DNA of 64,000 nucleotides from an uncultured Gemmatimonadaceae bacterium (GCA_963829055.1 CAWHHI010000003.1:448001-512000); one strand, 5' to 3'. Shown: positions 541 through 63,626, counted from the stretch's first letter. The notes: generated from the letters alone by a model not told the origin. Made by a program: numbers and translations.

Positions 541-1260
541 CTACGCGCTGATCAGTTCAGATCGCTTGCGTCGCTCCTCCACAGTGAAGTTCGCGAAGCG
601 GAGAATGAGTTTCTCGGGAGTGAGGTCATCACTCCATGGAATCTCGAGCACGCGGCGGCTATGTGGAAACAGTGGGAACGCGCCGCCCGGGGTCGGCTTT
701 TTTCCGCCGACGCTCACCTCGCTGCTGAGCACTCGCCCTAACGCGGCGCTGGAATTCTCCAGCTCAACGTGAACCCGTTTTGCGGCCGAGTCGAAGTCGA
801 ACGCGTGAACGATCACGTCGGCTTGTCGCAGCGGCTGCGGCTGGAGCATGTACACGACGTGCGGCAGCTCGATGCGGACATTGAGGCCCGTCTGCGTCCG
901 CGCTCCCGTTAGGGTGCTGCTGATGAGGAACCACGACGGAAAACTCTTGGCGGTCGCCTCGTAGAACACGGTGTAGGTCTCGCGCGGCGGAATGCGAAAG
1001 CTCATCGCCGAGATCTTGACCCGCATGCGCGTGGTATCGAGCGGTTCCTCGATCAGCTCACCAGTCGGCTCCACGTGAAAACCACGCGGCTCGAGCACCA
1101 CGGTCAGCGGGAACAACGTCTCGTTGACGAGCTCGAACTTGCCACGCGCCTGTTCGGAAAACTCGACGACCGCCGGGCGCACGGTCTGCGCCTCCAGCGG
1201 TCGTACGATACCAGCGGTCATCACGATTGCGGCGAATCGAGCTCCGCCAGCCCACGTCAT
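541..1260 (-). CDS. Periplasmic pilus chaperone-like protein (PapD/EcpB-like fold, inferred)
   Basis: C-terminal 239 aa of ORF 541..2019; ATG at 1260 follows the pilin stop. Signal peptide ...LEAQ, then beta-rich segments FELVNETLFPLTV, FRIPPRETYTV and VELENSS typical of fimbrial chaperones; lies between two pilin-like genes. Confidence 0.6.
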   Translation of the reverse strand: MTWAGGARFAAIVMTAGIVRPLEAQTVRPAVVEFSEQARGKFELVNETLFPLTVVLEPRGFHVEPTGELIEEPLDTTRMRVKISAMSFRIPPRETYTVFYEATAKSFPSWFLISSTLTGARTQTGLNVRIELPHVVYMLQPQPLRQADVIVHAFDFDSAAKRVHVELENSSAALGRVLSSEVSVGGKKPTPGGAFPLFPHSRRVLEIPWSDDLTPEKLILRFANFTVEERRKRSELISA

Positions 1261-1262
1261 CA

Positions 1263-1841
1263 CTATTGGGTAACCGCGCGAAGATTGAGCGTGCCGGTGT
1301 ACGTACCAGGGGTCGTCGTCTGCCCCGTGAGATCGAGCTGCAACTCGAGGTCGATCGTACGGGTCGACTTCTTGTTCGCCCCCGTAATGGTCTCGGTGAA
1401 CAACGTTAGGCTCCCGCTCGCCGTTCCAACGCCGCCAACCGCGCTCTGCGTGAACGCCGTGAACGATGCGGGCGCGCCCGGCGTGGCGGCGGTCGTCACG
1501 CGGCCCTTCACTTGGGTCGTCGCAATGTTGAACGTGCCGTTCGTGAGTGCAGCCGCGGCGCTCGAGAAGTAGCCGACGAGCGACACCGACGCGGCCGACG
1601 GATTGATATCCCAGCTGGTCGTGATGTTCACGGCCGACGGGAAGTTGTTCGTGGCGTTGTCGGTGATGCTCGCGATGCTCTGCGTGCCCCCCGAGTTCAC
1701 CGCGACAGTCAGCGAGGTCGCCTTCACGGCGCTCAACGACACGTTGGCGACGTTCGACGTCAGACCGGCTTGGGCCGAAGCCTTCGCGGAAACCAGCGCG
1801 AACGTCGCAACGGCGACGGGAAGAATGCGGAGTCGAATCAT
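1263..1841 (-). CDS. Major pilin-like secreted subunit (chaperone-usher type)
   Basis: Signal peptide ...ASAQ, Thr/Ser/Ala/Gly-rich beta protein, C-terminal PGTYTGTLNLRAVTQ resembling the G-x-Y-x-G-alternating final strand of CS1/Csu-class pilins. Confidence 0.65.
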   Translation of the reverse strand: MIRLRILPVAVATFALVSAKASAQAGLTSNVANVSLSAVKATSLTVAVNSGGTQSIASITDNATNNFPSAVNITTSWDINPSAASVSLVGYFSSAAAALTNGTFNIATTQVKGRVTTAATPGAPASFTAFTQSAVGGVGTASGSLTLFTETITGANKKSTRTIDLELQLDLTGQTTTPGTYTGTLNLRAVTQ

Positions 1842-2511
1842 TCAGCGAGTACCTGTCAGAGGGTGGCAGAGACCGGCGCACAGTGCGCAAGTCATTGTGC
1901 TGGAGCGCACAAAACCGGGCTGATCCGTTCCGCTCCACCCGCGCCGTTGACGAACGATCTGTGCCGCCGTCACCCTGCTCGACACTGTACTGGAACGCGA
2001 CATCGGGTCGGACGCCCACGAATCGGCGCCCGTGACGACTGGAAATTCATCCTGCGGATCGTCGTCGCGCTAACTGGTTGTCGCGTTCCCCGACACCGCG
2101 TCACGAGCGCTCGACGTTCGATCGCAAACTCAAGCGCGGCAACGCGTTCAAGTTTTTGAGCCGATCTGCCGATACTGCGATCTTTTTGTCGACTGTGAGG
2201 GGTCCAGGTGGGTCGCGATTCCGGCACAATCGAGCGCCGCAGCATCACGTTTTACCGCGGTCACGGAGTGCCACGTGGGACCATTTCTTCGATGCCCACT
2301 CCGCTCATGTCGACCACGAGCCGGCACAACGGCGACGTTGCAATCCGCAAGAAGCCAGTGATTCTGCAATGTCACCGCGCGGGTACGATGCGACTTCGGG
2401 AGTGCGACTCGCGAACGCAGCAGAACCGCGCTATCGTCGCCACGTCATCGGGCTCGGCACTGCGCGCGAATCTTGCGCAGAAGCGCCCTGTACCTTCCCT
2501 CGAGGAATTCA

Positions 2512-2980: not shown

Positions 2981-3899
2981 TTACCCGACCGACCGTTCCT
3001 CGCGACCCCGCGGAGCGTGCGTGCTCAACCAACTGGCGACGGCGGCGAAGATCGCATCTCGGCCGTAGTCGACGGTGATGATGTGGCCGTTCCCCTCTGT
3101 CCAGACGAGTTGACGCTCGCTCGCCGTGAACAGGGCGAACGCGCGCTCGGCGGCGTCCGCCGGGATGCGGTGGTCCTGGCGTGATTGAACGACGAGCGTT
3201 GGTGCGGAGACCTTCGGTGCCGCTTTGCGGGCGCGCTCGACGACGCGGGCGAGCTCGAACACGAGGCGCGGTGTTGTGAAACCGTAGGCGAGGTTGCGAG
3301 CGACTTCGGCCGGGTCTCGTATGGACCGCTCACCTCCGCCGCGGAGATACGGAAGCGGCACGCCGAGGACGTGGTGAAAGAGAGCGGCACGACGCAGCCG
3401 CGTGGGCATGCTGAGGTACGGCGCGAGCAACACCAGGGCTGCCAAGTCCGACATCTCGGCTGCGAGGATCGTCGCGAGCGAACCCCCCATCGAGAGACCG
3501 ATTACCGAGACCGTTTCGTAGCGGGACCGGAGCGACTCCACTTCCGCGCGCGCGGACTCGATCCAGTCGTCGGCGCGGCTCGCGGCGAAGTCGGTGAGCG
3601 TCCGCCCATGACCCGGCAGGAGCGGCGCTCGCACCGTCCAGCCCTGTGCGTTGATCGCCTGCGCGAGATACCCGAGCGTCTGCGGCGTGTCGCCGAAGCC
3701 ATGAAGCATCAACACGGCGGCACCGCCCGTCCGCGGGCAGGTCGATGGGTGCGGCCCCGAAAACGATACCATCGGGCCGCAGCGTTAGGCGCGTCCCGAC
3801 ATCCGCGTGAGCCCGCGTCGTCGTCCGCGAGCGCAGCATGAGGACGCCGGCGGCGACGAGCACGAATGCGAGGAGCACGAACGCGACGAGCGCGATCAC
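2981..3899 (-). CDS. Membrane-anchored alpha/beta-hydrolase (carboxylesterase), frameshift near 3740
   Basis: LHGFGDTP, GLSMGG nucleophile elbow, catalytic His in GNGH; hydrophobic N-terminus MIALVAFVLLAFVLVAAG lies in another frame (3330..3899). Confidence 0.8.
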
Positions 3900-6077: not shown

Positions 6078-7848
6078 ATGCCCGCCTCCACACCAACGGT
6101 TGATCGCCGCTCGATTCCCGCGGTGGCGATCATCGGCAACGATGCTGTGCTAGTGGCTGCGCCGGCGACGCCGGTGCAGTTGTCGCACGCCTGTCTGCGT
6201 CGTGGATTCTCGGTTGCTGTACCGGCAAGTTGGGGTGACGAGTTGATCGCCGCCGAGGCCATGCGGAAGCTCGCGTCGCGAGACAAAGGACCAGCCGTGA
6301 TGTGCGTGTGCCCTTACGCGCGGTCACGCTTGCTCACGCCAGGCCCCGATCTCGAGCCGTTCCTCGTCTCGCTCGTCGCGCCGCCGGTGGCCACGGCACG
6401 CTACCTCCGCGCCGTGTACGGCGAGCGCGGAGTACACATCACGTACATCGGCTCGTGCCCCAGCGCGAACGACCCGGCGATCGATGAGCGCCTAACGCCC
6501 GACGCGTTTCTGGCCGACCTCGCTGAGCGAGGGATCGCGCTCTCCGAGCAGCCGCTCGTGTTCGACTCGATCGTTCCGCCGGACCGCCGTCGTTGGTGTT
6601 CGCTGGCTGGCGGGGTACCGAGTGGCGAAATGCCCGGCAGTGACGCGGACACCCGCACGCTCATCGAGATCGAGCGCGACGATGTGTCCACGGATCTCGC
6701 GCAGCATATCATCGCCCGTGAGAACGTGCTGCTCGATCTCGCACCGGGTCTCGGCTGCGCGTGCAGCGGGGCGATCGGCCCTCTGAGGCCGCGCGGTGCT
6801 CGCGCGGCCGTCACCGCCCTCGAGCCACCTCGCGCGCTCGGCCCCGTCGTTGACCTCACGGTCGTCGTAGCCCTGGATGCGCCGCTCTCGGCGCCGGTGA
6901 TTGCACCGACTGCCAGCTCGCCGGCGGTCTCCCGCGAGACGCACACCGACCTCCTCGAGCGGCAGCTGGACGAGATGCTGGGGGTCGAAGCGAGTCACCC
7001 GGAGATGAAGCGCGCGTTGGACGCGGAGTTCGAAGCCGAACTGGACGCAGACCTCGCCGAGGTCTTTCTCGCGGCTGGCCGTCCCGCCGAAGCACCACAT
7101 CATCCGGAATCACTGGCGTCGGAATCGGAATTGCCGCTTGAGCCGTCCGTTGTCCCCGGGTCAGGAGACCCGCGGGGCGGCATAGGGACGACCGCGTTCA
7201 GTCCGACGGAGGACGTTAGCGACGCTGCGGTTGCGGACCGCGACGTCGAGAGTCGCGACATCGTTGGGAGTCACGTGGAAGCGCCAAGGCATCACGTGCG
7301 TCGTCGAACGCCGCCGTCAACGCCCTCGCGCTACGCGGGCAACAGCGTTCCGACGGCGACGGGAACGGATGGGCGGCCGCTACCACGTGCGTACGTCGCG
7401 AAGCGGCGGACGCCTTCCGTGGGAATCCCAACTATTGATGAGTCCCTGCCCCCCGTGACTGACACTGCGCCTTCGCCAGACGAGCAGGCCGCTGTGGGGC
7501 CCCCTCCGTTCGAGGACATGGCATCATTGGCTGCAGCAGACGCTATCACAGGCGAGGTGCCCGCATCCACAGGGTCGCCGAGAGCCGAGAGCGAGGAGGT
7601 TGCCGCCACCGTCAGTGACATCGCGGATTCATCTGCAGCCGCAGCGAGTTGATCCACCTTCAGCAGAGTCGGGTGAGCGTACCGAATCAGGCGGGGCGCC
7701 GCGTGTCGAGCCGCCTGCCGGCCCTCAGGTCAGCTCGAGCGGCGCCGCCGCTGCCGCGGCTCTGCCGAATCAGGACATATTGAGGATGCTGACATTCGCC
7801 GTGTTGCTGGCGTTTGCGGCCGTCGTGTTGTACACGCTGCAGCCCTGA
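6078..7848 (+). CDS. Degenerate [FeFe]-hydrogenase/Nar1-like Fe-S domain with long acidic Pro-rich linker and probable C-terminal membrane anchor (frameshift near 7640)
   Basis: Motif order GF..AV...GDELIA / VMCVCP / P...FLVSLVAPPVATARYLR / TYIGSCP / IDERLT / AGG / LDLAPGLGCACSG parallels the Fe_hyd_lg_C pattern. ORF 7600..7848 supplies a hydrophobic tail. Confidence 0.55.
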
Positions 7849-7901
7849 GCGTCCTCAGCAACATCTGCTGGAGCGTGAGCGGTCCGCCGCGTGTGCGTCA
7901 C

Positions 7902-10031
7902 CTAACGCCGAACCGATTGCGTCGCGTCGTCGAGCGCCGCCGTAGCCGCGTCGAAGCGTCGCGCCAGATCTTCGATCTCGCCCTGTACCAGTGTAGCGTC
8001 ACCAGTTCGTATGGCCTCGTTCACCGACGGGAACACGATGTTCGCGTACCCGTTGTTCTCGTCCGCGGCGTAAATGAGGTTGCGATACCACGGGCGCGTT
8101 TTCAGCCCCTGTGGTCGCGTGAGCGCCCGCTCGACGCGAAGCAGCGCGGCATTCGTGGTTCGACGTGTGGCTGCGGCCAGCGGGCGCGCCAGCGCTGAAT
8201 CGCGCGCCGACGCGAACGTGGCTGCGCTCTTCTCCATACGATCGATAGCCGTTGCGAGCACCGAGCTCGAGACGCGCCACTGACGAGACGCGATGCCCTT
8301 GTCGACGGCTGGCAGATAGCGGCGCATCGTTCGCGCGTACTCGACGTAGTCGTAGGGCACGATGTCGGCATTCGCGAGGCGAAGCGCCATTGCTGCACCG
8401 AGGCGGGCCGCGGTCGCGTGGTAGCGGTATCCGCTGTCGCCGAACGTTTCCATCCAATGGCGACTGTCATAGGCGGAGTGGTACACACCGCCTGCACCAC
8501 CGAATCCCCAGTCGGCGTGCGGAATGCCGAGGTGGTTATAGAAGCCGGCGAAGTCGGAGCCGCCGCCGGGATCGCCCATTTCGGGCTCGGCCGAGTCCGC
8601 AACGTTCGAGGCGCGTCGCCAGACGTCGTAGACACTGCCCTTCCCGTTAGGATCTGCGACCAATCGCGCAATCGATCGCACTGTCGCACGCAGTGACGGA
8701 GACCCGCCGGCTCCGAAGCTGGGGCCTTGCGCGGCGACGTCCTGATTCAGGTAGGCCACTGCGCCGCGCAACAGCCGAAGGCTGTCGTCCTCGACGTACT
8801 CGGTCGATCCGACCAACCCCCATTCCTCGGCATCCCAAGTAGCGAACACGATCGTGCGCTTGGGACGAATGCCGCGCTTGGCCAACTCGGCGACCGCGCG
8901 CGCGGACTCGAGTACGCTGACCGTGCCACTGACGTTGTCCGCGGCGCCGGGACCCCACGCGTCCCGGTGCCCTCCGATGACGATCATCTCATCTGGAAAC
9001 TCGGTGCCTCGAATGATCCCGAACGTGTCCCAGATGGTCTTGTATGGCGCCGTGGCCGTGTCGGTCATTACCGCCACGCGGGCGGAGACCGGGCCCGGTC
9101 CGACATGATACCGGAACGGGAGGCCACCCTGCCACGGCTGTGGAATGCGCGTGCCGCGAACGTCGCGCAGCAACTCGGCGGCGTTGCCGTACGAGATTGG
9201 GACGACGGGAATCCGCGACACGCCCGCCTCTGCGAGCGGGATGCGCTTCGCGCCCGCTCGGCTCGGCGTGCCGGGTGTCGTCGGATCACCAGCGCCGTTG
9301 AAGACGCTGCCGCGCTGGATGCCCTGTGACGGCCGCATGGGACCGGCGGGGTACACGTCCCCACGGACGAAGCCGTCGTCCGCCGGATCGCTGTAGATGA
9401 GCAGCGCCACCGCTCCGTGGCGTTCCGCCTCGCGCGCCTTGATCCCACGGAATGAACGGCCATAGCGCGCGACGGCGACCTTGCCCCGGACGGACACGCC
9501 TAACGAGTCGAGTGTGGCGTAATCCTCGATCAATCCGTAGTTCACGTAGACCACTTCGGCGGTGACGTCGCCGCTCCCACCGTAGCCATTGATGGGCGGT
9601 ACCTCGGGCATCGACGAGGTCGAGTCGCCCGCGACGGGCCCTTCGGTGAGCGCGAGCTCGCGAGCATCGGGTGACACGCGCCAGACGCGAATGCTCGTCG
9701 GATGCGGCATCCAGACCTGGTATGCACGGACCTCGGTCTCCAGACCCCACGATCGCATGCGGTCGATGACGTAGTCGCGCGTGCGCGCCTGTGCCGGAGT
9801 GCCCGACATGTGCGGTTCGCGAGACAGCGCTCGCGAATACTCCGCCGCGTTCGTCGGCGAGGGTAGTGCGATCGCATCCGCCTCTGTCCGACGTTCCACG
9901 CCGGCGTTCGCCGCCCCATACCCAGGGATGGCCGGCGGCGACTGCGTGCGCGCCGCAACGATGGCGAGCGCGAGCACGGACGTCAGTGCGCCGCGCGGAG
10001 AAAGGAGGCGGACCGCGAAGTTGGCAGCCAT
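7902..10031 (-). CDS. M28 glutamate carboxypeptidase II-like peptidase (PA and TfR-dimerisation domains)
   Basis: YVNYG, RYGRSFRG, IYSDP, GGHRDAW..GAADN.SG, WDAEEWGLVGSTE, GGSD, YHSAYD. Confidence 0.92.
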   Translation of the reverse strand: MAANFAVRLLSPRGALTSVLALAIVAARTQSPPAIPGYGAANAGVERRTEADAIALPSPTNAAEYSRALSREPHMSGTPAQARTRDYVIDRMRSWGLETEVRAYQVWMPHPTSIRVWRVSPDARELALTEGPVAGDSTSSMPEVPPINGYGGSGDVTAEVVYVNYGLIEDYATLDSLGVSVRGKVAVARYGRSFRGIKAREAERHGAVALLIYSDPADDGFVRGDVYPAGPMRPSQGIQRGSVFNGAGDPTTPGTPSRAGAKRIPLAEAGVSRIPVVPISYGNAAELLRDVRGTRIPQPWQGGLPFRYHVGPGPVSARVAVMTDTATAPYKTIWDTFGIIRGTEFPDEMIVIGGHRDAWGPGAADNVSGTVSVLESARAVAELAKRGIRPKRTIVFATWDAEEWGLVGSTEYVEDDSLRLLRGAVAYLNQDVAAQGPSFGAGGSPSLRATVRSIARLVADPNGKGSVYDVWRRASNVADSAEPEMGDPGGGSDFAGFYNHLGIPHADWGFGGAGGVYHSAYDSRHWMETFGDSGYRYHATAARLGAAMALRLANADIVPYDYVEYARTMRRYLPAVDKGIASRQWRVSSSVLATAIDRMEKSAATFASARDSALARPLAAATRRTTNAALLRVERALTRPQGLKTRPWYRNLIYAADENNGYANIVFPSVNEAIRTGDATLVQGEIEDLARRFDAATAALDDATQSVRR

Positions 10032-10062
10032 GAGGGTCGAGTCGTGGGTTCGTTAGGGAGCG

Positions 10063-10674
10063 TTAGGCGTCGTCGAGTCGCTCGATCGCACGCGCGATCG
10101 CACGCTGCAACTGAATCTCGCGTTCGCCGGCGTTGATGACGGTATCTGGTAGCGCGGCGGCAAGTAGGGTGCACTGTCGTAGCATTTCGTCGCGCACGAT
10201 CGCCGGCGATGGGTCGCGGACACCAAGGCTCTGCAGCACCCCAGATGCAAGCACCCGGAGTTGATCGCGCGTCGTGTCGGTCAGCCCGTCGAGCGTGGGC
10301 GGGTCGAGTGGGGCTTCGATGACCGCGGGCTCGCCCGGCGGTCGTCGCCCCGTGGCCGCGCTCAGGGGTGCGAGTCGGACCACGAACGAACCGGGTGAGT
10401 GCTCACTATGCTCGAGTACAACGCCGCGCGTCGACAGGAACGCGATGAGGCGCCTAACGGCTTCGCGCACGACGGGTACTGCGCCGAAGCTCTGGTTCCC
10501 CCGCCCCGTGATCACGAGCACTTCACGGGCCCCTTCGGCCTGCTTCATACGCAACCAGCTTTCGGTGCGCTTCACCGCTTCCGCGGCGGTGGGCAGCGAT
10601 GCGCGGAGATTCAGCGTTCCGGTTCGCCCGAAGCGGATCTCGTCGAGCGCGTGTTGGAGCGGTCGTCGCGTCAC
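10063..10674 (-). CDS. Stand-alone Smr (small MutS-related) domain protein
   Basis: VLVITGRGNQS...VVREAV...GSFVVRL; probable GTG start at 10674. Confidence 0.75.
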   Translation of the reverse strand: MTRRPLQHALDEIRFGRTGTLNLRASLPTAAEAVKRTESWLRMKQAEGAREVLVITGRGNQSFGAVPVVREAVRRLIAFLSTRGVVLEHSEHSPGSFVVRLAPLSAATGRRPPGEPAVIEAPLDPPTLDGLTDTTRDQLRVLASGVLQSLGVRDPSPAIVRDEMLRQCTLLAAALPDTVINAGEREIQLQRAIARAIERLDDA

Positions 10675-10678
10675 GCCG

Positions 10679-12266
10679 TTAGCGTATGGACGAGCGCAAC
10701 ACGTGGCCGTCGAGGCGTTCAAGGGGCGTTATGCCGAGCACCTCGGCGAGAGTCGGTGCCATGTCGACGACACGCGCAAACTCGTCGTACTTGCCCGGCT
10801 TGAAGGGCGGACCGTAGAAGAGCACGGGCACATGCGCGTCGTAGTCGTGCGGCGTCCCATGCGTCGCGTTTCCCTGCCCCCAATAATTGTATGGCTGAAG
10901 CGTGACGACGACTTCGACGGGAAGCTCTGGCGGCAGCATGTGCAGCCAGCGACGCGCGATCGCGTCCTTCGTTGTGTCGGCGCGCGCGAGGTCACGCACG
11001 AGGTCGACGCGGAGCACGCCCGGGACTTTCCGCTCCGCGGCAACAAAGGCCGCGATCACAGAGTCGGGTGACAGTCGGCCCGCTGCCAGCGCCTTCCTGT
11101 TCACCAGCAGGAAGGGCGTGTCCCAGATGAATCGCGTCGAATCGCGCAGCGCGGCCGTTACGCGCGCTTCCGCGGCCCACGCCGTGTCGAGCGCGGCACG
11201 AACGTACGTTGCTCCCGCGTTAGGGTCGTGAGACTTCACACCGAGATATGGCGCGACTCCATGATCGGCGGTGAGCGTGACGATCACGCGCGACGAGTCG
11301 CGGACCTTGTACAACGAGTCGAAGAACGCGCCGAGGTACCGATCGAGGCGGAGGATCTGGTCGTGCAGTTCTCGCGAATCCGGTCCATAGGCATGACCAA
11401 TCGCGTCGGTCGTGGAGAGCGAGACCGCGAGGATGTCGGTCTGCGGGCCGGTACCGAGCTTCAGCGCCTCGAGACCTTCGAGCGCGAACTGCAACGTCAG
11501 GTCGTCCATCCACGGAAACGCGGCGAACACACTCGCCGCCTGCGCCGGATCAGCCGGCGCGACGTGCGGAAATGTCGTCCCGCCCCGGCCAGCGTTTTCC
11601 TGCGGGACGTCGTCTGGTTCGGGGTATTGCGTTGGGTCGAGCAGCAGCGTCCACTCTTTACCGGCATATTGGGCGGGAATGCGTCGCGCGTTGAAGCGCT
11701 GCACCCACGTCGGCAGTGTGTCGGCGTAGTACGTGCTGGTCGAGAAGTTTCCGGTCGTCGCGTACCAGAACACCGACTGCTTCGCACGCCCCATCGGGAG
11801 AATGGCTCCGCGGTCTTTCCGCGACACGGACAGCGCATGTGATCGCGGGTCCTTGCGCTGCAGCCATTCGATCAGCGTCGTTCCACGAAACCGAAACGGC
11901 GACGCGCCGATCGCGCCACCGCCGATCACGGGAGATCGCGGGTCTTCCACCCCTCGCGAGTTCTCCAAGATCCCCGTGCTCCGCGGAAATCGTCCCGCCA
12001 TCGTCACCGAATGGCCAGGTGCCGTTTCGGTGATCGCATGATCATGAAACGCATTGGTGTAGAAAGCGCCACCGCGGTACAGCCGAGCGAGGCCTCCGGT
12101 CAGTTGGGGCTCGAAGCGCGAGAAATAGTCGGGGCGCATCTGGTCCACGGTGATGAAGACCAGAAGCGACGGCGTCGCGCTCGCCACGGGTCCCTGAGAG
12201 TTCTGCGCGCACGCAACGGCGGGGAGCAGTCCCAAGGCGAGGCAAGAAGACTCGTGAACGAAGCAT
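10679..12266 (-). CDS. Alkaline phosphatase superfamily protein (PafA-like, Thr nucleophile); probable N-terminal frameshift
   Basis: ITVDQMRPDY, TETAPGH, SRKDRGAI, DAIGHAYGPDS, TADHG, HGTPHDYDAHVP; the likely ATG at 12266 is out of frame with the body. Confidence 0.88.
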
Positions 12267-13182: not shown

Positions 13183-13250
13183 ACTGTGCCTAACGAAGTG
13201 ACATCGCTGGTGACCCCCGGCGCGCGATCCGCTGGGTGCGGCGTTGTCGC

Positions 13251-19718: not shown

Positions 19719-19740
19719 CGACCGGACGGTGCCTAACAGC

Positions 19741-20998: not shown

Positions 20999-21211
20999 TC
21001 AGGCGCCGGCCTTACTCACGTTCTCTGCGGCCGGACCCTTCGGCCCTTGGACGATATCGAATTCGACTGCATCGCCTTCCGCGAGCGTCTTGAACCCACT
21101 GCCCTGAATCGCGCTGTAGTGCACGAAGCAATCTTTCGTGCCGTTGTCAGGGGTGATGAAGCCAAAACCCTTCGCGTCGTTGAACCACTTCACTTTGCCG
21201 GTCGTACGCAT
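20999..21211 (-). CDS. Cold-shock protein (CspA family)
   Basis: [34 protein letters not shown]. Confidence 0.97.
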
Positions 21212-27175: not shown

Positions 27176-27325
27176 AGTCCGGCTCCGATGCGGCTCACAT
27201 TTTCGGCGCGACGCGCTGTATGAGCATGCGCGGTGCCCGCCGTGCCTAACGTTCGCACCGAGACGGCATCGACGTGCTGCTCTGCCGCGTTATGCGCTGT
27301 TATGCGCTCATGAGTGGCAAGCAAA

Positions 27326-49790: not shown

Positions 49791-49876
49791 CCGCTAGGAA
49801 TCGTTGCCGCCGGCGGCGTGATGGCCGCTCGGGCCGCCGCCCCTGCGGTTTGCCTCCCCTCGGTCAGGTCTAGCGC

Positions 49877-51919: not shown

Positions 51920-53481
51920 TCGCGCGTTAGGCACGCGCGCGGTCTGGGGCTGGCGACTGCGGTAGCCACTGAATGCCATTAGGTCGCCGGCCTGTAGGCC
52001 CGCGGCGAGACCACGCAGCTCTTGGGTGAGCTGATTGCGGTTCGCCACACGTTCGTAGTAGCCACCCCCGCTGATTGAATTCTCGATTCGTCGTGCAGAC
52101 GGGCATTTTCACCACGAAGGACGCCAGGGCTGCTTCGGCGTTCATCCAGGCGAACTTCTTCGACACGACATCCTGAATGGAAGGTGTTTTGAGAAGAAGC
52201 CGGAAACGACTGAAACGGCCCGATCCCATCGCGACCGGGCAGAGCCGTCTTATTCGCCATGGACCGCCCGGGATTTGAGTCACCCGGCTCGCATGGCCTT
52301 GGCGCCGTTCCTATTAGTAGCTAGTGGATACTATTGTGACCTCGGGCGAGACGACTACAAACCGCTGCTTGTTCGCGCACTATTTGTCACGAGAATACCG
52401 ACACGGACGCAGGGTTACGTGCGTTTGTTCTTATGTGCGTGTGTTCTAGTGATGCCGACTGTGGCAGCAGCGGCGTTGAAGCGCTGGCCGTAAGCACTTG
52501 CTGTTCGGCAACGGCGACTCCGCACTCTCAGCAAGTCGCCCACAGTCGTACCGTGGCGCTGCCGTAGTGCGATGGGAATGCGATCCAGTACCGCCGCGCG
52601 GCGCAGATAACGCGTCGTCGGCGCGCATGGGCGACGCCACGCCGAAGCTCGGCTGGCCTAGGACCGACCAGGAGCGGGGCCGTTGTCACTCATGAATACG
52701 TCGCCGCGCTGGAGCGGAGACGCGGTACCCGGATCGACGTTCAGGTACGGGTCGAAGTTCATGATCGACTCCGACAGGCACGACTCCACGAGCCAGTAGC
52801 CCGGCGGATTCCGTCGTGCCATGATTTCGATTCGATAGTACTGGCCGCAGTTCACTGAGTGCGAACGCATGCAAACTCGTCCAAGCCGAAGTGGGACGTA
52901 TCGAGGAAGTTGCGGCATGTCGAGAGCGCAGGGGCCGCTTACCTATTAACGCATCGTACCGCAGCGAGTCGATCAGGTTGGCTCCCGTTTCGGTTCGCAG
53001 GCGGGGTAAGTCCGACAATGCACCGGACGGGTTCGGGCGCGTCCCTAAGGCAAGTAGCATCACATGTCGGGCTGTGGAGCATGTCATGCCTTGGACACGT
53101 CGGCTTCGCGCCGGCTTCCCTGCGGGAGATGGTTGCGGTCCCGGCGGCACCATCTACGACGAGCAGCCGGTTTACGCGTGGTTCTGGCTCACGAACGTTC
53201 TACGACTCGATAGTTCGTGAGCCGGTCGGTGACAATTGCTAAGCTCGCTTTATACGGGCTAATCTGCGGCAAGCGGGTCACGCACGTTATTCTCTCCCGG
53301 TGCGGTGCTTTGCTGTGGCAGATTGGCGTTCGTGCCCACCGGCGCTCGACTGGTCGCCTTAGGCGCGTCGCTCGCGACGTCGGTGAACGCGCCGATCTGT
53401 CTGTGGATTCGGTCCAGGGTCTCCACGAAAGCAGTCCTGAGCCGGGTACACGCAGGCGAGCGCTGCGGGAAGGACAATCGA

Positions 53482-53497: not shown

Positions 53498-53507
53498 TTT
53501 CTGTGCC

Positions 53508-55469: not shown

Positions 55470-55969
55470 TGCGACTTGGATTTCTGAACCGGCTCCGCAA
55501 CGGCTACGGGAACATTTACACGCCGCACGCTGGGTCGATGATCATCCAGGTCCAACGGGAAACGGGGCTCGCCAATCGCACGATCGTCATTAGCGAACGT
55601 CAGGTTGCACTGGTTCGCATCGTCGGCTCACGTATCGGTCTCATCACAGTCGCGCTCTTCGTGGGAAGCTGGCTTATGTTCGCCGTGCAGAGCGTACGTG
55701 TGCCGCTACTTTCGGGTCGTATCGCCGAACTCGAGCGCGACAACCGACGCATCGACTCGTTGCAGGTTGCCCTGTCACGCATGCACGGTCGTTACGAACA
55801 GGTTCGCCAGATGCTTGCCACTACCGGAGCCGCCATCACACGTCCGGAGTCACCGGCCGCGCCCCGGCCCGCACTGCCTAACGCGACATCAGGACAGACG
55901 CCTGCGCAGGCCGGCGCCCCAAGAACAACCCCACCCTCCATCGATTCGGCTGGACGCGCTGCCCCCTGA
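55469..55969 (+). CDS. Single-TM coiled-coil protein resembling the N-terminal half of M23 endopeptidases
   Basis: TAATG coupling to parB; cytoplasmic beta-hairpin-like head, TM, coiled coil, Pro-rich tail. Confidence 0.6.
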   Translation: MRLGFLNRLRNGYGNIYTPHAGSMIIQVQRETGLANRTIVISERQVALVRIVGSRIGLITVALFVGSWLMFAVQSVRVPLLSGRIAELERDNRRIDSLQVALSRMHGRYEQVRQMLATTGAAITRPESPAAPRPALPNATSGQTPAQAGAPRTTPPSIDSAGRAAP

Positions 55970-56575: not shown

Positions 56576-57628
56576 ATGACCGTGAACCGTGCTCGGCGTC
56601 GTGGGTCCTTCATTGGCCTCACGCTGGTGTTTGTGGGGCTTGTGGCGTGTGATAACAACGCCCGCTCGACACGCGATTCATCGGTAGGCCAACAGCCTCC
56701 GACGGGGACGAAAGCGTTTCGCGTCGCGCTGCTCACGCCCGGCCCCATCTCCGACCGCTCATGGAACGGCGGAGCGTATGACGGTCTGATCGCGCTCCGT
56801 GACTCGTTAGGCGCACAGATCAGCCACGTGCAGACCAAGACGCCCGCCGAGTTCGAGGAGAATTTTCGCCAGTACGGTGCCCAAGGTTACGACCTCGTCA
56901 TCGGTCACGGCTTCGAATTTCAGGACGCCGCCGTGCGGGTGGCACCCGCGTTCCCGAAGACGATCTACGTCACGACGTCTGGCACTACGGTCCGGGCGAA
57001 CGTCGCGGGGATTCAATTCGCGTTCGACGACGGCGCGTACCTCGCCGGCATTCTCGCGGCAGGGATGACGAAATCCGGCACGATCGGCGTGATCGGTGGT
57101 ACCGAGTTGCCGCCCGTGAAGCAAAGCTTCGTGGCATACGCCGCCGGCGCTCGTTCAGCCAGTCCGAAAGTTCGCGTCGTCGTGTCGTACGTCGGCAACT
57201 GGGATGACATCAGCGCAGGCAAGGAGCAGGCGATTGCCCAGATCGGCCAAAAGTCGGACGTGCTCTTCCAGAACGCTGACGCCGCCGGCCTCGGTGTGTT
57301 TCAGGCGGCTCGTGAATCCGGTTCGACCTACGTCATTGGGTCGAACTCCGACCAGAACGCGGTCGCGCCAGAGGTGACAATCGCCAGCGTCGTGATCGAT
57401 CTGCGGCACGCGTTCCTGCTCGTCGCCAGCGAAATCAAGGAACGCCGATTCACCCCGCGTGTGATATCGCTCGGCATTCCCGAGAATGTCGTTAGGCTGG
57501 CGATCAATCCGGCGCTGCGGGCACGGATTCCCGCTCCGGTCCAGGCAACCATCGACTCGGTACAGCGGCGGTTGTTCGACAGATCGCTGCGCATCATGGA
57601 CTCCACGGGTACCGCCTCGCCTCCATGA
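56576..57628 (+). CDS. BMP-family nucleoside ABC transporter lipoprotein
   Basis: Lipobox LVAC; DRSWN, GHGFEF, YLAGILA, DQN. Confidence 0.9.
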   Translation: MTVNRARRRGSFIGLTLVFVGLVACDNNARSTRDSSVGQQPPTGTKAFRVALLTPGPISDRSWNGGAYDGLIALRDSLGAQISHVQTKTPAEFEENFRQYGAQGYDLVIGHGFEFQDAAVRVAPAFPKTIYVTTSGTTVRANVAGIQFAFDDGAYLAGILAAGMTKSGTIGVIGGTELPPVKQSFVAYAAGARSASPKVRVVVSYVGNWDDISAGKEQAIAQIGQKSDVLFQNADAAGLGVFQAARESGSTYVIGSNSDQNAVAPEVTIASVVIDLRHAFLLVASEIKERRFTPRVISLGIPENVVRLAINPALRARIPAPVQATIDSVQRRLFDRSLRIMDSTGTASPP

Positions 57629-58398
57629 CCGATCTGGCGACAATCGCCCGACACCTGGACGGTCTGCTCGAGACGCAGTCGATCCCTGACTACCCTGGTG
57701 CCCTGAACGGTGTTCAACTGTCGAACCGCAGTGCGATCAGTCGCATCGCGGCTTCGGTCGACGTCTCGAAGCGCGTAATCGACAGCGTGATTCGAGCCGA
57801 GGCGAACTTGCTGCTGGTGCACCACGGAATGTTCTGGGGCGGCGCACAGCCCATCACAGGAGCGGCGTACGACCGTTTGCGCCTGCTGCTCGAGCACGAT
57901 GTCGCGGTGTACTCGTCACATCTCCCGCTCGACGCTCACCCCACGCTGGGCAACAACGTGCTGTTAGCACGGACCCTCGGGCTCGAGCCTAACGCGGGGT
58001 TCGCGCGCTATCGAACCATCGACGTCGGCGTACGCGGAGACGCCGACGAGGACACCACGGAGCTGTGGCGACGCGCCGACGCGTTCGCGCGGTCGCACGG
58101 CGGGATCGCCCGGTCCACCATCATCCCGGCGAGTCATCGCACACGCCGATGGGCGGTCTGTACCGGCGCGGGCGCATCATCCGACACGTTGCTCGAGGCC
58201 CAGACGTTGGAGATCGACACGCTGATCGTCGGCGAAGGGCCGCACCATACCGCAGTCGCGGCAGATGACATTGGCCTCGTCGTCATATACGCGGGGCACT
58301 ACGCGACCGAGACACTCGGCGTTCGGGCGCTCGCCGGCCATCTCACGACAACCTTCGGCATCCCCTCGACGTTCATCGCGGCGCCGACCGGATTGTGA
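57625..58398 (+). CDS. Nif3/YbgI (DUF34) dinuclear metal protein
   Basis: NGVQ, LVHHG, HLPLDAHP..GNN, AGHYATE. Confidence 0.92.
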   Translation: MTDLATIARHLDGLLETQSIPDYPGALNGVQLSNRSAISRIAASVDVSKRVIDSVIRAEANLLLVHHGMFWGGAQPITGAAYDRLRLLLEHDVAVYSSHLPLDAHPTLGNNVLLARTLGLEPNAGFARYRTIDVGVRGDADEDTTELWRRADAFARSHGGIARSTIIPASHRTRRWAVCTGAGASSDTLLEAQTLEIDTLIVGEGPHHTAVAADDIGLVVIYAGHYATETLGVRALAGHLTTTFGIPSTFIAAPTGL

Positions 58399-59835
58399 GC
58401 GACGCCGCGCCAGCGCTTGCACTCGAGCACATTGGCAAGCGCTTCGGCACCGTCGAGGCGTTGAACGATGCCACGTTGACTGTGCGTGCCGGCACGGTGC
58501 ACGCCCTGCTCGGTGAGAACGGGGCGGGAAAGACAACGCTGATGAGGATCGCCTACGGCATGGAATCGGCGGAGCGGGGCACTGTGCGCATCGATGGGCG
58601 CCCCGTTCGTCTGAGGTCACCCGCTGACGCGATCGCCGCCGGCGTCGGGATGGTCCATCAGCACTTCACGCTCGTCCCCGCTATGACGGTAGCCGAGAAC
58701 ATCGCGTTAGGCGACCGCGGCCGATTCGATTCAGGGCAGGCAGCAGAGCGGGTCCGTGACCTCAGCCAGGCGTCGGGGTTCCCGTTGGACCCGGACGCGC
58801 GGGTTCGCGACCTGGCGGTGAGTGCGCAACAGCGCGTCGAGCTCCTGAAAGTCCTTTCCCGCGACGCGCGAATATTGATTTTCGACGAGCCCACAGCCGT
58901 CCTCGCTCCCGCCGAGGCCGATGACCTGCTCCGCCAGTTGCGTCGCCTGGCCGCCGACGGTCGCGCGATCATTCTGATCACGCACAAACTGCGAGAGGCA
59001 ATGAGAGTCGCGGATGACGTCACCGTCCTGCGACGAGGTAGCACAACGCTCTCTAGATCGCGCGCCGGCGTCGACGAGAACCAGCTCGTCGAAGCGATGC
59101 TCGGTCAGCGCGACATTGGCGGCGTACTCACCAGGACCAGCGCCACTGCGGGTAGCGCGGTGATTGCGGCGCGTGACGTGGAGATCGCCGATGACAAGGG
59201 AATCGCACGAGTGCGCGGTGCAACGTTCAGTATCCAGCAGCGGAGAAATCGTCGGCGTCGCTGCCGTGGAAGGGTCCGGTCACCGAGAGCTCCTCCGCGC
59301 GATCGCCCGTCGGCTACCGATACGGGCTGGTCGGCTCGAGCTCCCATCGGTTGTCGGATTCGTTCCGGACGACAGGCACCGGGACGCATTGGTCCTCGCA
59401 ATGTCGCTCTCTGAGAACTTCGCACTGAACGGTGCAGGCACTCGCGACGGGGTGATCCGATGGGGCGACGTCGCGCGGACGACGCGGAAGATCATTGAGG
59501 AATTCGACGTACGCGCCAGCGACGAGAGCATCGCTGCCGGCACGCTGTCCGGCGGCAATCAGCAGAAATTCGTCCTCGGGCGCGAGCTCCACGGTCCTCC
59601 GCCGGCCTTGGTCGCGGAAAATCCAACGCGGGGGCTCGACATCAGGGCATCCGCTTTCGTCAGAGATCGCCTCGTCCGCGCTGCCGCCAGTGGCGTCGCT
59701 GTCGTCCTGCACTCCGCGGATCTCGATGAAGTCGTCTCCATCGCCGATCGAATGCTCGTCGTGTATGGCGGTACCGTCCGAGAGGTCCCGGTCGACGTGG
59801 ACGTGGTTGGTCGGGCGATGCTTGGAGCGGCGTGA
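58395..59835 (+). CDS. Nucleoside/sugar ABC transporter double-domain ATPase (frameshift near 59240)
   Basis: GENGAGKTT, GMVHQHF, DEPTAVL; then LSGGNQQKF, NPTRGLD in the second frame. Confidence 0.9.
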
Positions 59836-61125: not shown

Positions 61126-61566
61126 ATGAGTCGCACGCCGTCGCCTGGTATCGAGGACAAAGGGAGCGTCACGGCGAAGCGCCGGTCGCGTTGGCGGCCG
61201 TGGTTGCTGCTTCTCGCGTTCAGCGTGGCATGGAAGGTCGTCGTGCTCACGCTCGGTGCTGCGATGCCCCATTGGGTGATCGACGATGGGTTGGAGCACA
61301 TCCCGATCGCGATGCAGCCCTACGCAACCCAGGCGCGAGCGACCGCCGTCGCTCTCTGGAGCAACCCGATCGAGCGGAGCACGCTCGTCCGATTGGTCCG
61401 CGTGGTGAGTGTGGACAGCGCGACGGGAGGAGATTCGGCCCGCGGCTGTGGCGGGATGAGCGCGCGGGTTCGCGCGTATACCTTCTTCGCCATTCCGTAC
61501 TCCGAAGTACGGACCGTGTGCGACAAGGGTATCGTGGAGTATCGAGTGTTCCGTCGCCGGCAGTAA
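61126..61566 (+). CDS. Hypothetical membrane-anchored protein
   Basis: TM helix, Cys pair, RAYTFFAIPY; TAATG coupling to the next gene. Confidence 0.6.
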   Translation: MSRTPSPGIEDKGSVTAKRRSRWRPWLLLLAFSVAWKVVVLTLGAAMPHWVIDDGLEHIPIAMQPYATQARATAVALWSNPIERSTLVRLVRVVSVDSATGGDSARGCGGMSARVRAYTFFAIPYSEVRTVCDKGIVEYRVFRRRQ

Positions 61567-62679
61567 TGGCCGACTCGGTGCGGCGGGTGATGATTCGAGC
61601 TGCTCGCACCCTTGTGGCGGGCCTGGCGTTGATGTCCGCGATTGCGGGCCTGGTCGCGATCCTCTGTGTTGTCAGCGGGTATGATCCGCTGCGTGCCCTC
61701 GATGCCCTGTGGCGCGGGTCGTTAGGCTCCCGGTACGCTGTGCTGTCAGCTACGCTCGTGCGCGCGACGCCGCTGATCCTCACCGGCCTGTCGGTCACGC
61801 TCGCGTTCACCGCGGGGGTGATGAACATCGGCGCCGAGGGCCAGCTGCTTGCCGGCGCAACCGCCACGACCGCCGTCGCCATGGTGGCCGGGCGATCGCC
61901 GAGTTGGCTCGCGCTGCCACTCTCGCTCGTTGCTGGAGGGCTGGCGGGGGCGGCATGGGCGTACATTCCGGCTTGGTTGCGTCGCCGGTTCGGGGTGCTC
62001 GAGGTGATCAGCACGATCATGATGAACTTCGTCGCACTCAATCTGGTAGGCTATCTGGTTCGCGGTCCGTTGCAGGAGCCGCTTCGCATATACCCGCAGA
62101 GCGCTTCGTTCCCAGAAAGCACGCGCCTCCCAATCCTCGTAGGAGGAACCCGGCTGCATCTCTGGCTTCGGTATCGCGCTCACGGCGGCCGCGGTCATGT
62201 GGTGGGCGCTTCGATTCACGGCGGCAGGCTTTCGCGTGAGAGTGTTAGGCGGGAGCCCTGACGCCGCGCGGAGCGCCGCGTTGATCGATGCTGGCAAGAC
62301 GGCAATGCGCGCGTTTCTCCTGAGTGGCTTTCTTGCCGGCCTCGCTGGCGCCGTAGAGGTGACGGGGGTCACGTACTCGCTCTACGAGAACCTGTCACCC
62401 GGCTATGGCTACACAGCCATCGCGGTCGCGCTGATCGGGTCGCTGAATCCGGTGCTGACCGCGTTCAGCGGGATCTTGTTCGGTGCGCTGGAGGCTGGCG
62501 CGTCCGCGATGCAGCGGGATGCCGGAGTGCCTTCCGTGCTCGCGACCGTAGTCGAGGCGTCGGTGCTTCTGCTCCTCATCGGTCTCGGTGCCGTGCGCGC
62601 CCCGTTCTCACGCTGGCGTCATTCGCGCGCCGCGAAAGTCGAGTCCCGGGAGCGGGCGCCGATCCCCGAGCCACTGTGA
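61566..62679 (+). CDS. Nucleoside ABC transporter permease (frameshift near 62165)
   Basis: ATPLILTGL, NIGAEGQ, EVISTIMMN; GYGYTAIAVAL in the second frame. Confidence 0.88.
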
Positions 62680-63581
62680 CAGACACGATCGGGCCATTTC
62701 TGGACGCGACGATCCGGACCGCGACGCCACTCGCGCTTGCAGCGTTAGGCGAAACCGTCGTGGAGCGCGCCGGGATGATCAACATCGGCCTCGAGGGCAC
62801 GATCATCGCGGGAGCATTCGGTGCAGTTGTCGCCGCCGCGTTGCTCGGGGCTGCGGGGGCCTTGGTAGCCGCCGTAGCCGCCGGGGTTCTCACCGCCATC
62901 GTCCTCGGTCTCTTCATCGTGGCGATGCGGACAGATCAGATTGTCGCCGGCACAGCGCTCACACTCCTGGCGCTCGGCGTGACGGGACTGCTCTACCGAA
63001 CGACGTTTGGGACGACGGGCGTTGCTTTGACGATTCCGACGGCCGGTGCAGTCGCGATACCACTATTGGCATCCATTCCAGTAGTCGGACGCGCGCTGTT
63101 CGCGCAGCCAGTCACGACGTATGTCGTGTACTTGACTGTCCCATTGCTGGCCTGGTGGCTGTCGCGCACGCACGCCGGGTTATCGCTTCGCGCCGTAGGC
63201 GAGAACCCCGCCGCCGCGATTGCGGCGGGCATATCGCCCGACCGCGTGCGGTGGCTTGCGCTCCTGTTCGGCGGGGCGTTAGGCGGATTGAGCGGAGGGA
63301 CGCTCGTCATCGCGCAGGTTGGGACGTTCGCCGAAGGGATGTCGGCCGGTCGTGGATTCATCGCCATCGCGATCGTCGCCTTGGGCCGCTGGTCGCCGGT
63401 TGGCGTGGCGATCGCGGCGATGCTATTCGGGGCAGCGAGCGCGCTGCAGTTCGTCTTTCAGTCGCTCGGGTGGACGCTCCCGTACCAACTCTTTCTCGCG
63501 CTTCCCTACGTGCTGACGCTCTCGGCGCTCGCCGGCGTTACGGGGCGCAGCGGGCCGCCTGCCGCACTCGGCCGCCGGTAG
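62676..63581 (+). CDS. Nucleoside ABC transporter permease
   Basis: ERAGMINIGLEG, RAVGENP, GRGFIAIA, LPYVLT, PAALG. Confidence 0.92.
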   Translation: MTDTIGPFLDATIRTATPLALAALGETVVERAGMINIGLEGTIIAGAFGAVVAAALLGAAGALVAAVAAGVLTAIVLGLFIVAMRTDQIVAGTALTLLALGVTGLLYRTTFGTTGVALTIPTAGAVAIPLLASIPVVGRALFAQPVTTYVVYLTVPLLAWWLSRTHAGLSLRAVGENPAAAIAAGISPDRVRWLALLFGGALGGLSGGTLVIAQVGTFAEGMSAGRGFIAIAIVALGRWSPVGVAIAAMLFGAASALQFVFQSLGWTLPYQLFLALPYVLTLSALAGVTGRSGPPAALGRR

Positions 63582-63626
63582 CGTGTTCGTGCAGTCCACG
63601 TGCCGAAGCTGGCGGATGCCTAACGC

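Follow-up and report, generated by a model that had tools for sequence, protein, structure and literature searches.

The closest described parallels to the DNA word reported here are the uptake signal sequences (USS) of Pasteurellaceae and the DNA uptake sequences (DUS) of Neisseriaceae: short, non-palindromic words found about once per 1-1.5 kb, equally in both orientations, and accommodated within genes in the least costly reading frames. Their spacing is more even than random, they are absent from recently acquired DNA and they are shared by related genera, every genus of Neisseriaceae having its own DUS dialect. To our knowledge, uptake-sequence-like words have been established experimentally in only two proteobacterial families. 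Other octamers, Chi and KOPS/AIMS (FtsK-orienting polar sequences and architecture-imparting sequences), are strongly co-oriented with replication. The cyanobacterial octamer HIP1 (highly iterated palindrome 1; GCGATCGC) is hyperabundant, 15- to 300-fold over-represented, and conserved inside as well as between open reading frames (ORFs), yet of unknown function and unexplained for decades (PMC5861425). Integron cassettes, in turn, carry attC sites with the consensus RYYYAAC / GTTRRRY (PMC3053210), and integrases can also insert cassettes at double-stranded genomic attG sites, for which GWT is the only requirement (bioRxiv 10.1101/2022.09.11.507474). Here we describe GCCTAACG, a lineage-specific, genome-wide, solitary 8-bp "self word" found in a 64,000-nucleotide stretch (hereafter the window) of an uncultured soil bacterium of the Gemmatimonadaceae (GCA_963829055.1, CAWHHI010000003.1:448001-512000). 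This word is written and kept throughout resident DNA by a directional force whose level of action is the DNA and neither protein nor RNA; that the force is a molecular drive of the uptake-sequence type is a reading that we favor tentatively.

Exact copies of GCCTAACG number 36 in the window, 17 on the plus strand and 19 on the minus strand, whereas 100 dinucleotide-preserving shuffles yield a mean of 1.24 and a maximum of 4, none reaching 36; for the hexamer core CCTAAC the count is 49, where 7.75 would be expected. An earlier note on this DNA, which had counted 36 perfect copies, placed every one of them exactly, its 13 further "variants" keeping CCTAAC are the 13 extra cores, located to within one nucleotide, and all four of the reading frames that it named (CCT-AAC Pro-Asn, CTA-ACG Leu-Thr, TTA-GGC Leu-Gly and GTT-AGG Val-Arg) are in use. 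Inside ORFs lie 27 of the 36 copies, three more supply or touch a stop codon (10061, 23200, 35037) and six are intergenic (Table 1). The genes concerned are housekeeping genes, for example argD, argG, argH, ispG, hisG, hisH and ABC transporter genes, as named from NCBIfam matches. The window itself, C3:448001-512000 of a 7.78-Mb, 20-contig assembly of 66.6% GC (G000; completeness 86%), is a piece of ordinary chromosome that includes arg and his operons; as mnmG-parA-parB are among its genes (window 47799-55469), the replication origin is probably near. The best MnmG match of this genome is 72% to a metagenome-assembled genome of Gemmatimonadaceae, and the organism belongs to that family.

Genome-wide, there are 5004 copies (2457 plus, 2547 minus), or 0.64 per kb, spread over every contig. 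The word is the most over-represented 8-mer of the genome, at 49 times the order-2 Markov expectation of 102, and all other top over-represented 8-mers overlap it; an order-2 model was used because maximal-order z-scores are uninformative where the 7-mers already hold the signal. Counts nest accordingly, from 8933 CTAA/TTAG tetramers through 7780 CTAAC, 7103 CCTAAC and 6391 CCTAACG to the 5004 full octamers. A codon-likelihood gene caller predicts 6678 genes (71% coding; a stricter first caller gave 47%), and as predicted gene starts are often too short, the frame, occupancy and intergenic figures that follow are approximate. Predicted coding sequences hold 3112 copies, 1437 sense and 1675 antisense, a mild antisense excess. 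Shuffling synonymous codons within genes leaves 84-103 sense and 46-57 antisense copies (about 140 in total), and shuffling codon order leaves 31-42 and 22-29 (about 65 in total), with five replicates of each, so the excess over codon-aware nulls is 22 to 48 times. Of 2681 TTA codons in predicted genes, 1263 lie inside the word.

The word is not a palindrome (its reverse complement is CGTTAGGC), and its flanking positions show codon periodicity only, with no conserved flank, which defines the unit as a solitary octamer. Positions 2-7 (CCTAAC) are strict and the preferred flanks are G...G. Tolerated one-off variants are ACCTAACG (827 copies, 48 expected), GCATAACG (583, 76 expected), GCCTAACA (435, 29 expected) and CCCTAACG (428); among all one-off variants, the rarest are those that alter the core; GTCTAACG and GCTTAACG are rare. 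Use of the four reading frames tracks codon cost, the share of compatible sites filled by the word being 859 of 1491 for x-P-N-[VADEG] (58%), 1262 of 5608 for [SPTA]-L-G (22.5%), 577 of 2894 for [SCRG]-L-T (20%) and 412 of 3773 for x-V-R-[LPHQR] (11%). The dipeptide PN stands at 1.38 times expectation, against 1.23 for NP. Stop codons are also supplied by the word (211 of 832 TAA and 180 of 1746 TAG), and in a metagene of 3423 well-scored genes 207 stops fall inside it, while the first 60 nt past the stop carry about twice the within-gene density. Otherwise the density is similar in coding and in non-coding DNA, at 0.56 and 0.70 per kb under generous ORF extension. The word is, in essence, written by point substitutions where the DNA tolerates them: at synonymous sites, stop codons, gene ends and spacers.

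Copies also interfere with one another. The hazard of meeting the next copy, per kb, is 0.14 at 0-100 bp, 0.29 at 100-200 and 0.50 at 200-300, and reaches about 0.77 beyond 600 bp, so that copies avoid one another within about 300-500 bp. Gaps of 200 bp or less make up 4.4% of the total against 12.3% expected; four control 8-mers of like count, at 14-22%, show no such depletion. Neighboring copies share orientation in 2589 of 4984 pairs, and on the seven largest contigs motif skew and GC skew correlate at -0.33 to 0.00, showing no link to replication polarity. On contig C16, GC skew and gene strand both flip at about 550 kb, beside a Xer-like recombinase gene (540795-541592), and the region at about 540000-560000 is likely the replication terminus.

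The word marks long-resident DNA, to judge from its rise with GC3 (GC at third codon positions) and codon adaptation and from its absence from one island. From the lowest to the highest GC3 quintile its density climbs from 0.39 to 0.72 per kb, the TTA-dependent frame included; density being highest in the most native-looking genes, the cost of rare codons does not exclude the word from them. In 10-kb bins, 14 of the 771 lack the word where a Poisson model predicts 1.2. One region of about 45 kb (C6:~10000-55000), at 70-73% GC compared with 66% for the genome, has no copy, not one CCTAAC and almost no CTAA; it is probably recently acquired DNA. Overall, the force that writes the word is balanced against codon cost. 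Outside the window, the genome also carries a second abundant repeat, CGCTCGGAATGACA (818 copies of CGGAATGAC; for example on C20, C6 and C11), often tandem, with units spaced about 18 nt and a GC-rich, stem-like segment ahead of them; it looks like a repetitive extragenic palindromic (REP) element.

All seven genomes of the genus, G000 included, hold 2501-5112 copies. In a survey of 301 genomes of the phylum, high counts are otherwise confined to scattered genera: 6360 copies in the 5.1 Mb of G014, 4469 in G299, 4141 in G292, 3896 in G235 and 1100 in G159, together with 1061 in G206, of another family. Ten genomes have 300-900 copies (G188, G287, G114, G124, G293, G167, G213, G166, G010, G030). 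Most others lie well under 100, with a few at about 100-200 (G018 194, G071 191, G146 181, G052 173, G253 110), and in nearly all low-count genomes the word is at or below its reversed-word control; the unpublished genomes G013, G078, G117 and G198, included in the tallies, and G353, included in the MnmG comparison, are none of them word-rich and underlie no particular conclusion drawn here. At least 10 genera of family f1 and one of f2 share the word, most genera having 0-80 copies. Its distribution in Gemmatimonadota is patchy even within one genus, for G288, with 66 copies, is congeneric with G235 and G292, which have about 4000 each. MnmG identity to G000, considered as a separator of word-rich from word-poor genera, does not separate them. 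The top k-mers of the word-poor G288, G007 and G018 are tandem arrays of a 7-bp unit, and those of G009 and G016 (a 40-kb sample) reveal nothing clear. The arrays have 3-4 units and stand as inverted pairs about 70-180 bp apart, with a unit that varies by genus (AGAAAGC, GACATCT and GATAGAC among G288, G018:C4 and G007); in G288:C67:45001-65000 they lie at about 13969-14063, 16726-16813 and 19696-19874 of that stretch. They look like a family-wide intergenic element with lineage-specific spelling.

Conservation was measured site by site on one 20-kb region (window 13200-33199), over which genus members are 75-77% identical in DNA and in which related genomes are not independent of one another. 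Within the genus, 21 of 35 site-by-genome comparisons are perfectly conserved (G005 7/9, G002 7/8, G004 3/9, G003 4/9), against 12-15.5% for all 8-mers. Across word-rich genera at 70-75% identity, 12 of 24 sites are kept (G014 4/5, G235 3/5, G299 3/7, G292 2/7), against 7-13% for all 8-mers, while word-poor G288 keeps 0 of 7 and has no copy in the 11.3 kb aligned. Where the word is absent, ordinary synonymous codons stand instead, for example CGCTCGGC for CGTTAGGC. There is turnover as well, each relative having sites opposite unrelated codons in G000. With codon-aware nulls, site occupancy and conservation at orthologous sites in agreement, the suggestion of the earlier note that pressure acts on DNA rather than protein is borne out. 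So is its case against Chi/KOPS-type polarity, by orientation and GC skew, and the excess that it proposed to check against a codon-aware null survives genome-wide.

A technical artifact had been raised too. For a 10-kb stretch, 14 public runs, of soil and rhizosphere metagenomes, hold at least half of its sampled words, contigs of four public runs from four studies cover its motif sites, and among the 40 sequence differences listed in public runs (with 202 more beyond these) none falls in a motif site. Four independent runs, with independent assemblies of relatives that are equally rich, mean that the word is no assembly artifact. Chance, codon usage and a dispersed repeat family are refuted along with it: none of the 100 shuffles reaches the observed count, the codon-aware nulls are exceeded 22 to 48 times, the flanks are not conserved and the word recurs in each of the genus's 7 genomes and also in other genera.

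Table 1. Perfect copies of the word and further CCTAAC cores in the window, with one further gene; positions count from the first nucleotide of the window.
Feature	Position	Strand	Context
Perfect copy	1404..1411	-	sense in 492-aa ORF 541-2019(-), GAG CCT AAC GTT = E-P-N-V
Perfect copy, intergenic	3783..3790	-	just upstream of ORF 2981-3772(-)
Perfect copy	6490..6497	+	sense in ORF 6039-7652(+), CGC CTA ACG = R-L-T
Perfect copy	9498..9505	+	antisense in ORF 7902-10031(-), gene reads TCG TTA GGC = S-L-G
Perfect copy	10061..10068	-	TAA of word is stop codon of ORF 10063-10722(-)
Perfect copy	10452..10459	+	antisense in ORF 10063-10722(-), GCC GTT AGG CGC = A-V-R-R
Perfect copy, intergenic	13188..13195	+	between convergent genes
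Perfect copy	14271..14278	+	antisense in argD, GCG TTA GGC = A-L-G; kept in G005, G002, G292, G235, G014
Perfect copy	14852..14859	+	antisense in argB-containing ORF, ACG TTA GGC = T-L-G; kept in 4/4 genus genomes aligned
Perfect copy	17523..17530	+	sense in argG, GCG CCT AAC GCA = A-P-N-A; kept in 4 genus genomes, G299, G235, G014
Perfect copy	18289..18296	-	antisense in argH, TCG TTA GGC = S-L-G
Perfect copy	18880..18887	-	antisense in argH, CCG TTA GGC = P-L-G; kept in G002, G292, G299, G235, G014; CGCTCGG- in G288, G003, G004
Perfect copy	22767..22774	+	sense in ispG, AGG CCT AAC GGC = R-P-N-G
Perfect copy	23200..23207	+	TAA is stop of ispG (21853-23205,+); CTA is TAG stop of convergent ORF 23202-23912(-)
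Perfect copy, intergenic	27244..27251	+	
Perfect copy	29154..29161	-	antisense in hisG, GCG TTA GGC = A-L-G; CGCTCGGC in G288, G004, G003
Perfect copy	31906..31913	+	sense in hisH, GCG CCT AAC GCC = A-P-N-A
Perfect copy, intergenic	34269..34276	+	after hisF
Perfect copy	35037..35044	+	TAA is stop of ORF 34329-35042(+)
Perfect copy	36557..36564	+	antisense in M16-peptidase-like ORF, GCC GTT AGG CAA = A-V-R-Q
Perfect copy	36888..36895	-	sense in same M16-peptidase-like ORF as 36557 copy, CGC CTA ACG = R-L-T
Perfect copy	40360..40367	-	sense in 736-aa ORF 39559-41769(-), GGC CTA ACG = G-L-T
Perfect copy	40831..40838	-	sense in ORF 39559-41769(-), R-L-T
Perfect copy	41188..41195	-	sense in ORF 39559-41769(-), R-L-T
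Perfect copy	50403..50410	-	antisense in ORF 49877-51919(+), S-L-G
Perfect copy	50766..50773	-	antisense in ORF 49877-51919(+), A-L-G
Perfect copy	51925..51932	-	6 nt after stop of ORF 49877-51919
Perfect copy	55876..55883	+	sense in ORF 55469-55969(+), L-P-N-A
Perfect copy	56805..56812	-	antisense in substrate-binding protein gene, S-L-G
Perfect copy	57490..57497	-	antisense in same substrate-binding protein gene as 56805 copy, V-V-R-L
Perfect copy	57987..57994	+	sense in Nif3-like gene, E-P-N-A
Perfect copy	58705..58712	-	antisense in ABC ATPase gene, A-L-G
Perfect copy	61720..61727	-	antisense in ABC permease gene, S-L-G
Perfect copy	62743..62750	-	antisense in ABC permease gene, A-L-G
Perfect copy	63277..63284	-	antisense in same ABC permease gene as 62743 copy, A-L-G
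Perfect copy, intergenic	63618..63625	+	
CCTAAC core, non-consensus flank	737..742	+	
CCTAAC core, non-consensus flank	908..913	-	
CCTAAC core, non-consensus flank	7901..7906	+	
CCTAAC core, non-consensus flank	8646..8651	-	
CCTAAC core, non-consensus flank	10052..10057	-	
CCTAAC core, non-consensus flank	11219..11224	-	
Core of GCCTAACA (19731-19738)	19732..19737	+	perfect word at this site in G005, G002
CCTAAC core, non-consensus flank	31002..31007	+	
Core of CCCTAACG (32586-32593)	32587..32592	+	perfect word at this site in G004, G003
CCTAAC core, non-consensus flank	35503..35508	-	
CCTAAC core, non-consensus flank	37841..37846	-	
CCTAAC core, non-consensus flank	49786..49791	+	at end of mnmG
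CCTAAC core, non-consensus flank	62244..62249	-	
Cold-shock protein gene	20999..21211	-	CSD, E 1.4e-31; many paralogues, 72-86% DNA identity, in every genus genome

The anatomy of the word fits uptake sequences best, and a molecular drive made up of biased uptake and recombination may be what keeps it. Under such a drive, the transformation machinery would include a sequence-specific DNA receptor with a preference for word-bearing fragments, and homologous recombination of the fragments imported would spread and maintain the word. One copy per few hundred bases would suffice, which could explain the short-range repulsion of copies, and resident temperate phages would be written like the chromosome. 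More speculatively, the reader of the word might also favor the uptake of gene cassettes, or derive from a protein that reads the attC R'' box, with which, as detailed below, the word is identical. The earlier note had drawn the same uptake-sequence parallel; as anatomy it stands as the closest match, although an uptake signal and a protein-binding site are not separable in silico.

Such a binding site is the substance of a HIP1-like alternative, in which each copy is selected as the target of an abundant DNA-binding protein with a role in nucleoid organization, segregation or similar. Sites conserved far above background within and between genera speak for it, conservation being the argument used for selection on HIP1 (PMC5861425), as do the even occurrence of copies across coding and non-coding DNA, their repulsion at short range and the sharing of the word by phages. 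Yet there is no helical phasing and no periodicity beyond codon phase, holding rare codons in place would demand strong selection on each of about 5000 sites, no protein candidate emerged, and the congeneric G288 does without the word at 66 copies. We regard this alternative as doubtful.

The phages bear on several of the explanations. Pairs of the word were sought in IMG/VR in two scans, which yielded 116 loci. Contigs G386, G387 and G388, of phages that seem to infect this bacterium and its relatives, are the three with dense copies on both strands, at 0.48-1.02 copies per kb, with 0-2 occurrences of the reversed control word in the three records. G386, a 61%-complete fragment, has 26 copies in 28.5 kb and genes for terminase, portal, protease, major head and tape-measure proteins, with no integrase or repressor seen; G387, labeled a provirus, has 26 copies in 25.5 kb along with terminase, portal, head and repressor-like proteins; and G388, 49,971 bp long with a 127-bp terminal repeat and 24 copies, has integrase, terminase, portal and head proteins. 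The latter two look proviral or temperate, so that an intracellular process and co-evolution with the chromosome are not told apart by the finding. The copies lie inside terminase, portal and head genes, which, together with the foreign island that has none, would suit a self tag against an intracellular nuclease or defense system, with word-bearing DNA protected in a Chi-like manner and phages selected to mimic it. This is very unlikely: unlike all known Chi sites the word has no replication-oriented polarity, no candidate system has been identified and, where phages look temperate or proviral (G387, G388), it is enough that phage and host have co-evolved passively.

Biased repair or modification-linked conversion, an option floated in the earlier note, would likewise act on chromosome and resident phages alike, as a sequence-specific system by which near-matches in all DNA replicating in the cell are changed to the word. 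A mobile determinant of this kind would explain the patchy distribution, and it is the core-altering one-off variants that are rarest. Known repair biases, on the other hand, give far smaller excesses, and the genes do not follow the word. In a comparison of five genomes (word-rich G000, G235, G292 and G014; word-poor G288), PF02384 and PF01555 methyltransferases are not found in G000, PF00145 is present only in G288, and the D12 class, which G288 has, is missing from G014. All 20 genomes of a wider search, rich and poor, show an Eco57I-domain match, mostly in an ORF of about 1000-1400 aa and in G000 only as a partial match within a 351-aa frame. Vsr is confined to three word-poor genomes of the 20, with none in 11 rich or medium genomes. 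No methyltransferase family is present in all word-rich genomes and missing from poor ones, and no family tried as a tracker (integrase, methyltransferases, Vsr, ComP_DUS, ComEC, DprA, secretin, pilins) tracks the word, which tells against the repair option and leaves it quite unlikely; gene absences in G000 are not proof at 86% completeness. On contig C8, matches to a D12-class methyltransferase gene (134909-135647) and a secretin gene (360651-361147) are split over two or three frames; these may be frameshifted genes or assembly errors.

The earlier note overlooked an identity for which any explanation has to account: integron attC sites have the same word as their canonical inverse-core (R'') box. 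The word equals the R'' box plus one base both of cassette-array attC sites in relatives (G021:C95, C80 and C43; G019:C3; G029:C1) and of G000's own attC-like hairpins, and a chance 8-mer match being very unlikely, we take the identity as real. In word-poor relatives the few copies cluster on the same strand every 500-650 bp and are the attC sites of cassette arrays: each begins with GCCTAACG, continues as an imperfect hairpin of 90-136 nt and ends in (T)GTTAGGC, the array on G021:C80 adjoining an integrase gene. GCCTAAC(G) opens every attC of the arrays examined, most of which close with GTTAGGC and the rest with GTTAGAC; in an alignment of 29 sites from three relatives, all begin with GCCTAACG and nearly all end in GTTAG(G/A)C. 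With a covariance model built from these 29, G021 has 84 matches (both strands counted, about 50 sites) and G014 has 14. The same R'' spelling occurs in the integron arrays of unrelated IMG/VR contigs (47-50% GC), and the word fits the published attC consensus.

Several loci illustrate the cassette biology of these genomes. G021:C95:1-24100 is a large cassette array of at least 30 attC sites, and G021:C80:1-7300 a second, lying 3' of an integrase gene whose reading is spread over three frames. G000 has a small chromosomal integron at C20:~192000-209200, with a run of same-strand copies of the word, attC-like hairpins at 192696, 205191 and 207188, and an integrase gene at 208041-208958(-). An AT-rich viral contig in IMG/VR (30% GC) holds, at about 9400-9900, a 108-bp tandem repeat each unit of which contains GCCTAACG; it is unrelated to the Gemmatimonadaceae signal.

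It follows naturally to ask whether an integron integrase, or a tyrosine recombinase derived from one, reads the word as a solitary R box, the copies serving as attG-like landing pads or as a titrating or recombination signal. Besides the spelling, which relatives, G000 hairpins and unrelated arrays share and which fits RYYYAAC / GTTRRRY, this account has in its favor that integrases can use genomic attG sites (bioRxiv 10.1101/2022.09.11.507474) and that integrase genes are common exactly in the order to which the word-rich lineages belong (49/70 in f1 and 80/125 in f2, as opposed to 2/47 in f7 and 0/12 in f10). Of the 301 genomes, 126 have genes above the TIGR02249 cut-off, chiefly within the two families with word-rich lineages. 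Integrase presence does not, however, follow the word: three matches (two over the cut-off, one just below) fall in G288 with its 66 copies, while the densest genome, G014, has a single integrase in three pieces and that of G000 scores 265.7 bits against a cut-off of 265. Nor do the dispersed copies look like attC sites. We considered whether they might be decayed attC sites or the ends of former cassette genes and rejected this, as they have no L box, R' partner or flank signature; a GTTRRRY lies 48-153 nt downstream of 5.5% of copies and of 2.4% of those at stop codons. Among 694 candidate pairs in G000, 62 pass a hairpin test against 37-45 with shuffled interiors, from which we estimate about 10 real attC-like sites, several of them near the C20 integrase, most passes being chance. 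Furthermore, the tolerated variants ACCTAACG, CCCTAACG and GCATAACG break the RYYYAAC degeneracy, GTCTAACG and GCTTAACG are rare, and attG sites need only GWT. An integrase-type reader is accordingly unlikely.

Weighed against all of this, uptake-sequence-type drive faces several difficulties, and the points gathered here count against it. In its plain form it does not explain the exact identity with the attC R'' box, and the host-like density of the word in phages fits an intracellular process at least as well. The transformation machinery that it would need is encoded, genes for ComEC, pilin-like proteins, a secretin and DprA being in all five genomes compared, and to that extent speaks for it; being equally present in word-poor G288, these genes explain nothing specific. 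In a search of 20 genomes, the ComP_DUS-type receptor family PF16732 has no match in G000, G001, G005 or G014, its weak matches falling in seven genomes, rich and poor alike, with only one over the cut-off, in word-poor G016. Inverted-pair terminators are not a feature of the word, there being only 14 + 16 inverted pairs within 100 bp genome-wide, below chance, and no dialect of their own emerged from 85-100 kb sampled in each of the word-poor G288, G007, G018 and G009. The organism, moreover, is known from assemblies only, and the role in uptake is a predicted one.

A bolder conjecture, likewise unlikely, would join the two bodies of evidence: in some Gemmatimonadaceae an integron R box may have become a chromosome-wide self tag, with a reader of GCCTAAC(G), either an uptake receptor or a recombinase-derived binder, driving preferential import and recombination of attC-core DNA. 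If this were true, a single system would comprise natural transformation, the cassette pool shared across the order and the process that writes the whole genome and its temperate phages. In Vibrio, transformation feeds cassettes to chromosomal integrons (PMC12614218). The literature searched contained no description of a sequence tag coupling transformation to integron cassettes, and none of the word itself under its spellings, Gemmatimonadetes uptake sequences or over-represented octamers, the last leading to HIP1 and methods papers; among 478 papers matching the spellings, the 20 listed looked like primers or unrelated uses.

The word offers a very clean case from a different and poorly studied soil phylum. 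Congeneric genomes with about 4000 and with 66 copies provide a natural contrast that makes a search for the reader gene by association tractable, and phages that share the tag, together with the exact integron-core identity, tie signals of competence and self-recognition to integron biology. Should the reader be found, it would represent either a third, independent uptake-specificity system or an explanation of what hyperabundant words are for.

Among known systems, Chi, KOPS and AIMS resemble the word in being over-represented 8-mers, theirs read by DNA-processing machines, but here orientation is 50:50 and unlinked to GC skew. REP elements, bacterial interspersed mosaic elements (BIME) and repeats of the miniature inverted-repeat transposable element (MITE) type also reach thousands of copies; those are longer, structured, intergenic and spread by insertion, whereas this word is 8 bp without flanks, lies mostly in frame in conserved genes and arises by substitution. 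HIP1 is likewise a hyperabundant octamer (49-fold over-represented in our case) with conserved sites, but it is a palindrome and this word is not, and no associated methyltransferase was found here. With the attC R'' (RYYYAAC) and R' (GTTRRRY) boxes the spelling is identical, yet the dispersed copies are solitary, with no hairpin partner, L boxes or cassette structure, and integrase presence has no link to abundance; attG sites differ in needing only GWT. Unlike DUS, the word comes with no ComP-type receptor found and no inverted-pair terminators, and unlike both USS and DUS it is patchy within a genus, has word-poor relatives whose 85-100 kb samples showed no dialect, belongs to another phylum and is spelled as an integron core site. 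In density, equal orientation, use of cheap frames, even spacing, absence from foreign DNA and occurrence in related genera, it is nonetheless like the USS of Pasteurellaceae and the DUS of Neisseriaceae.

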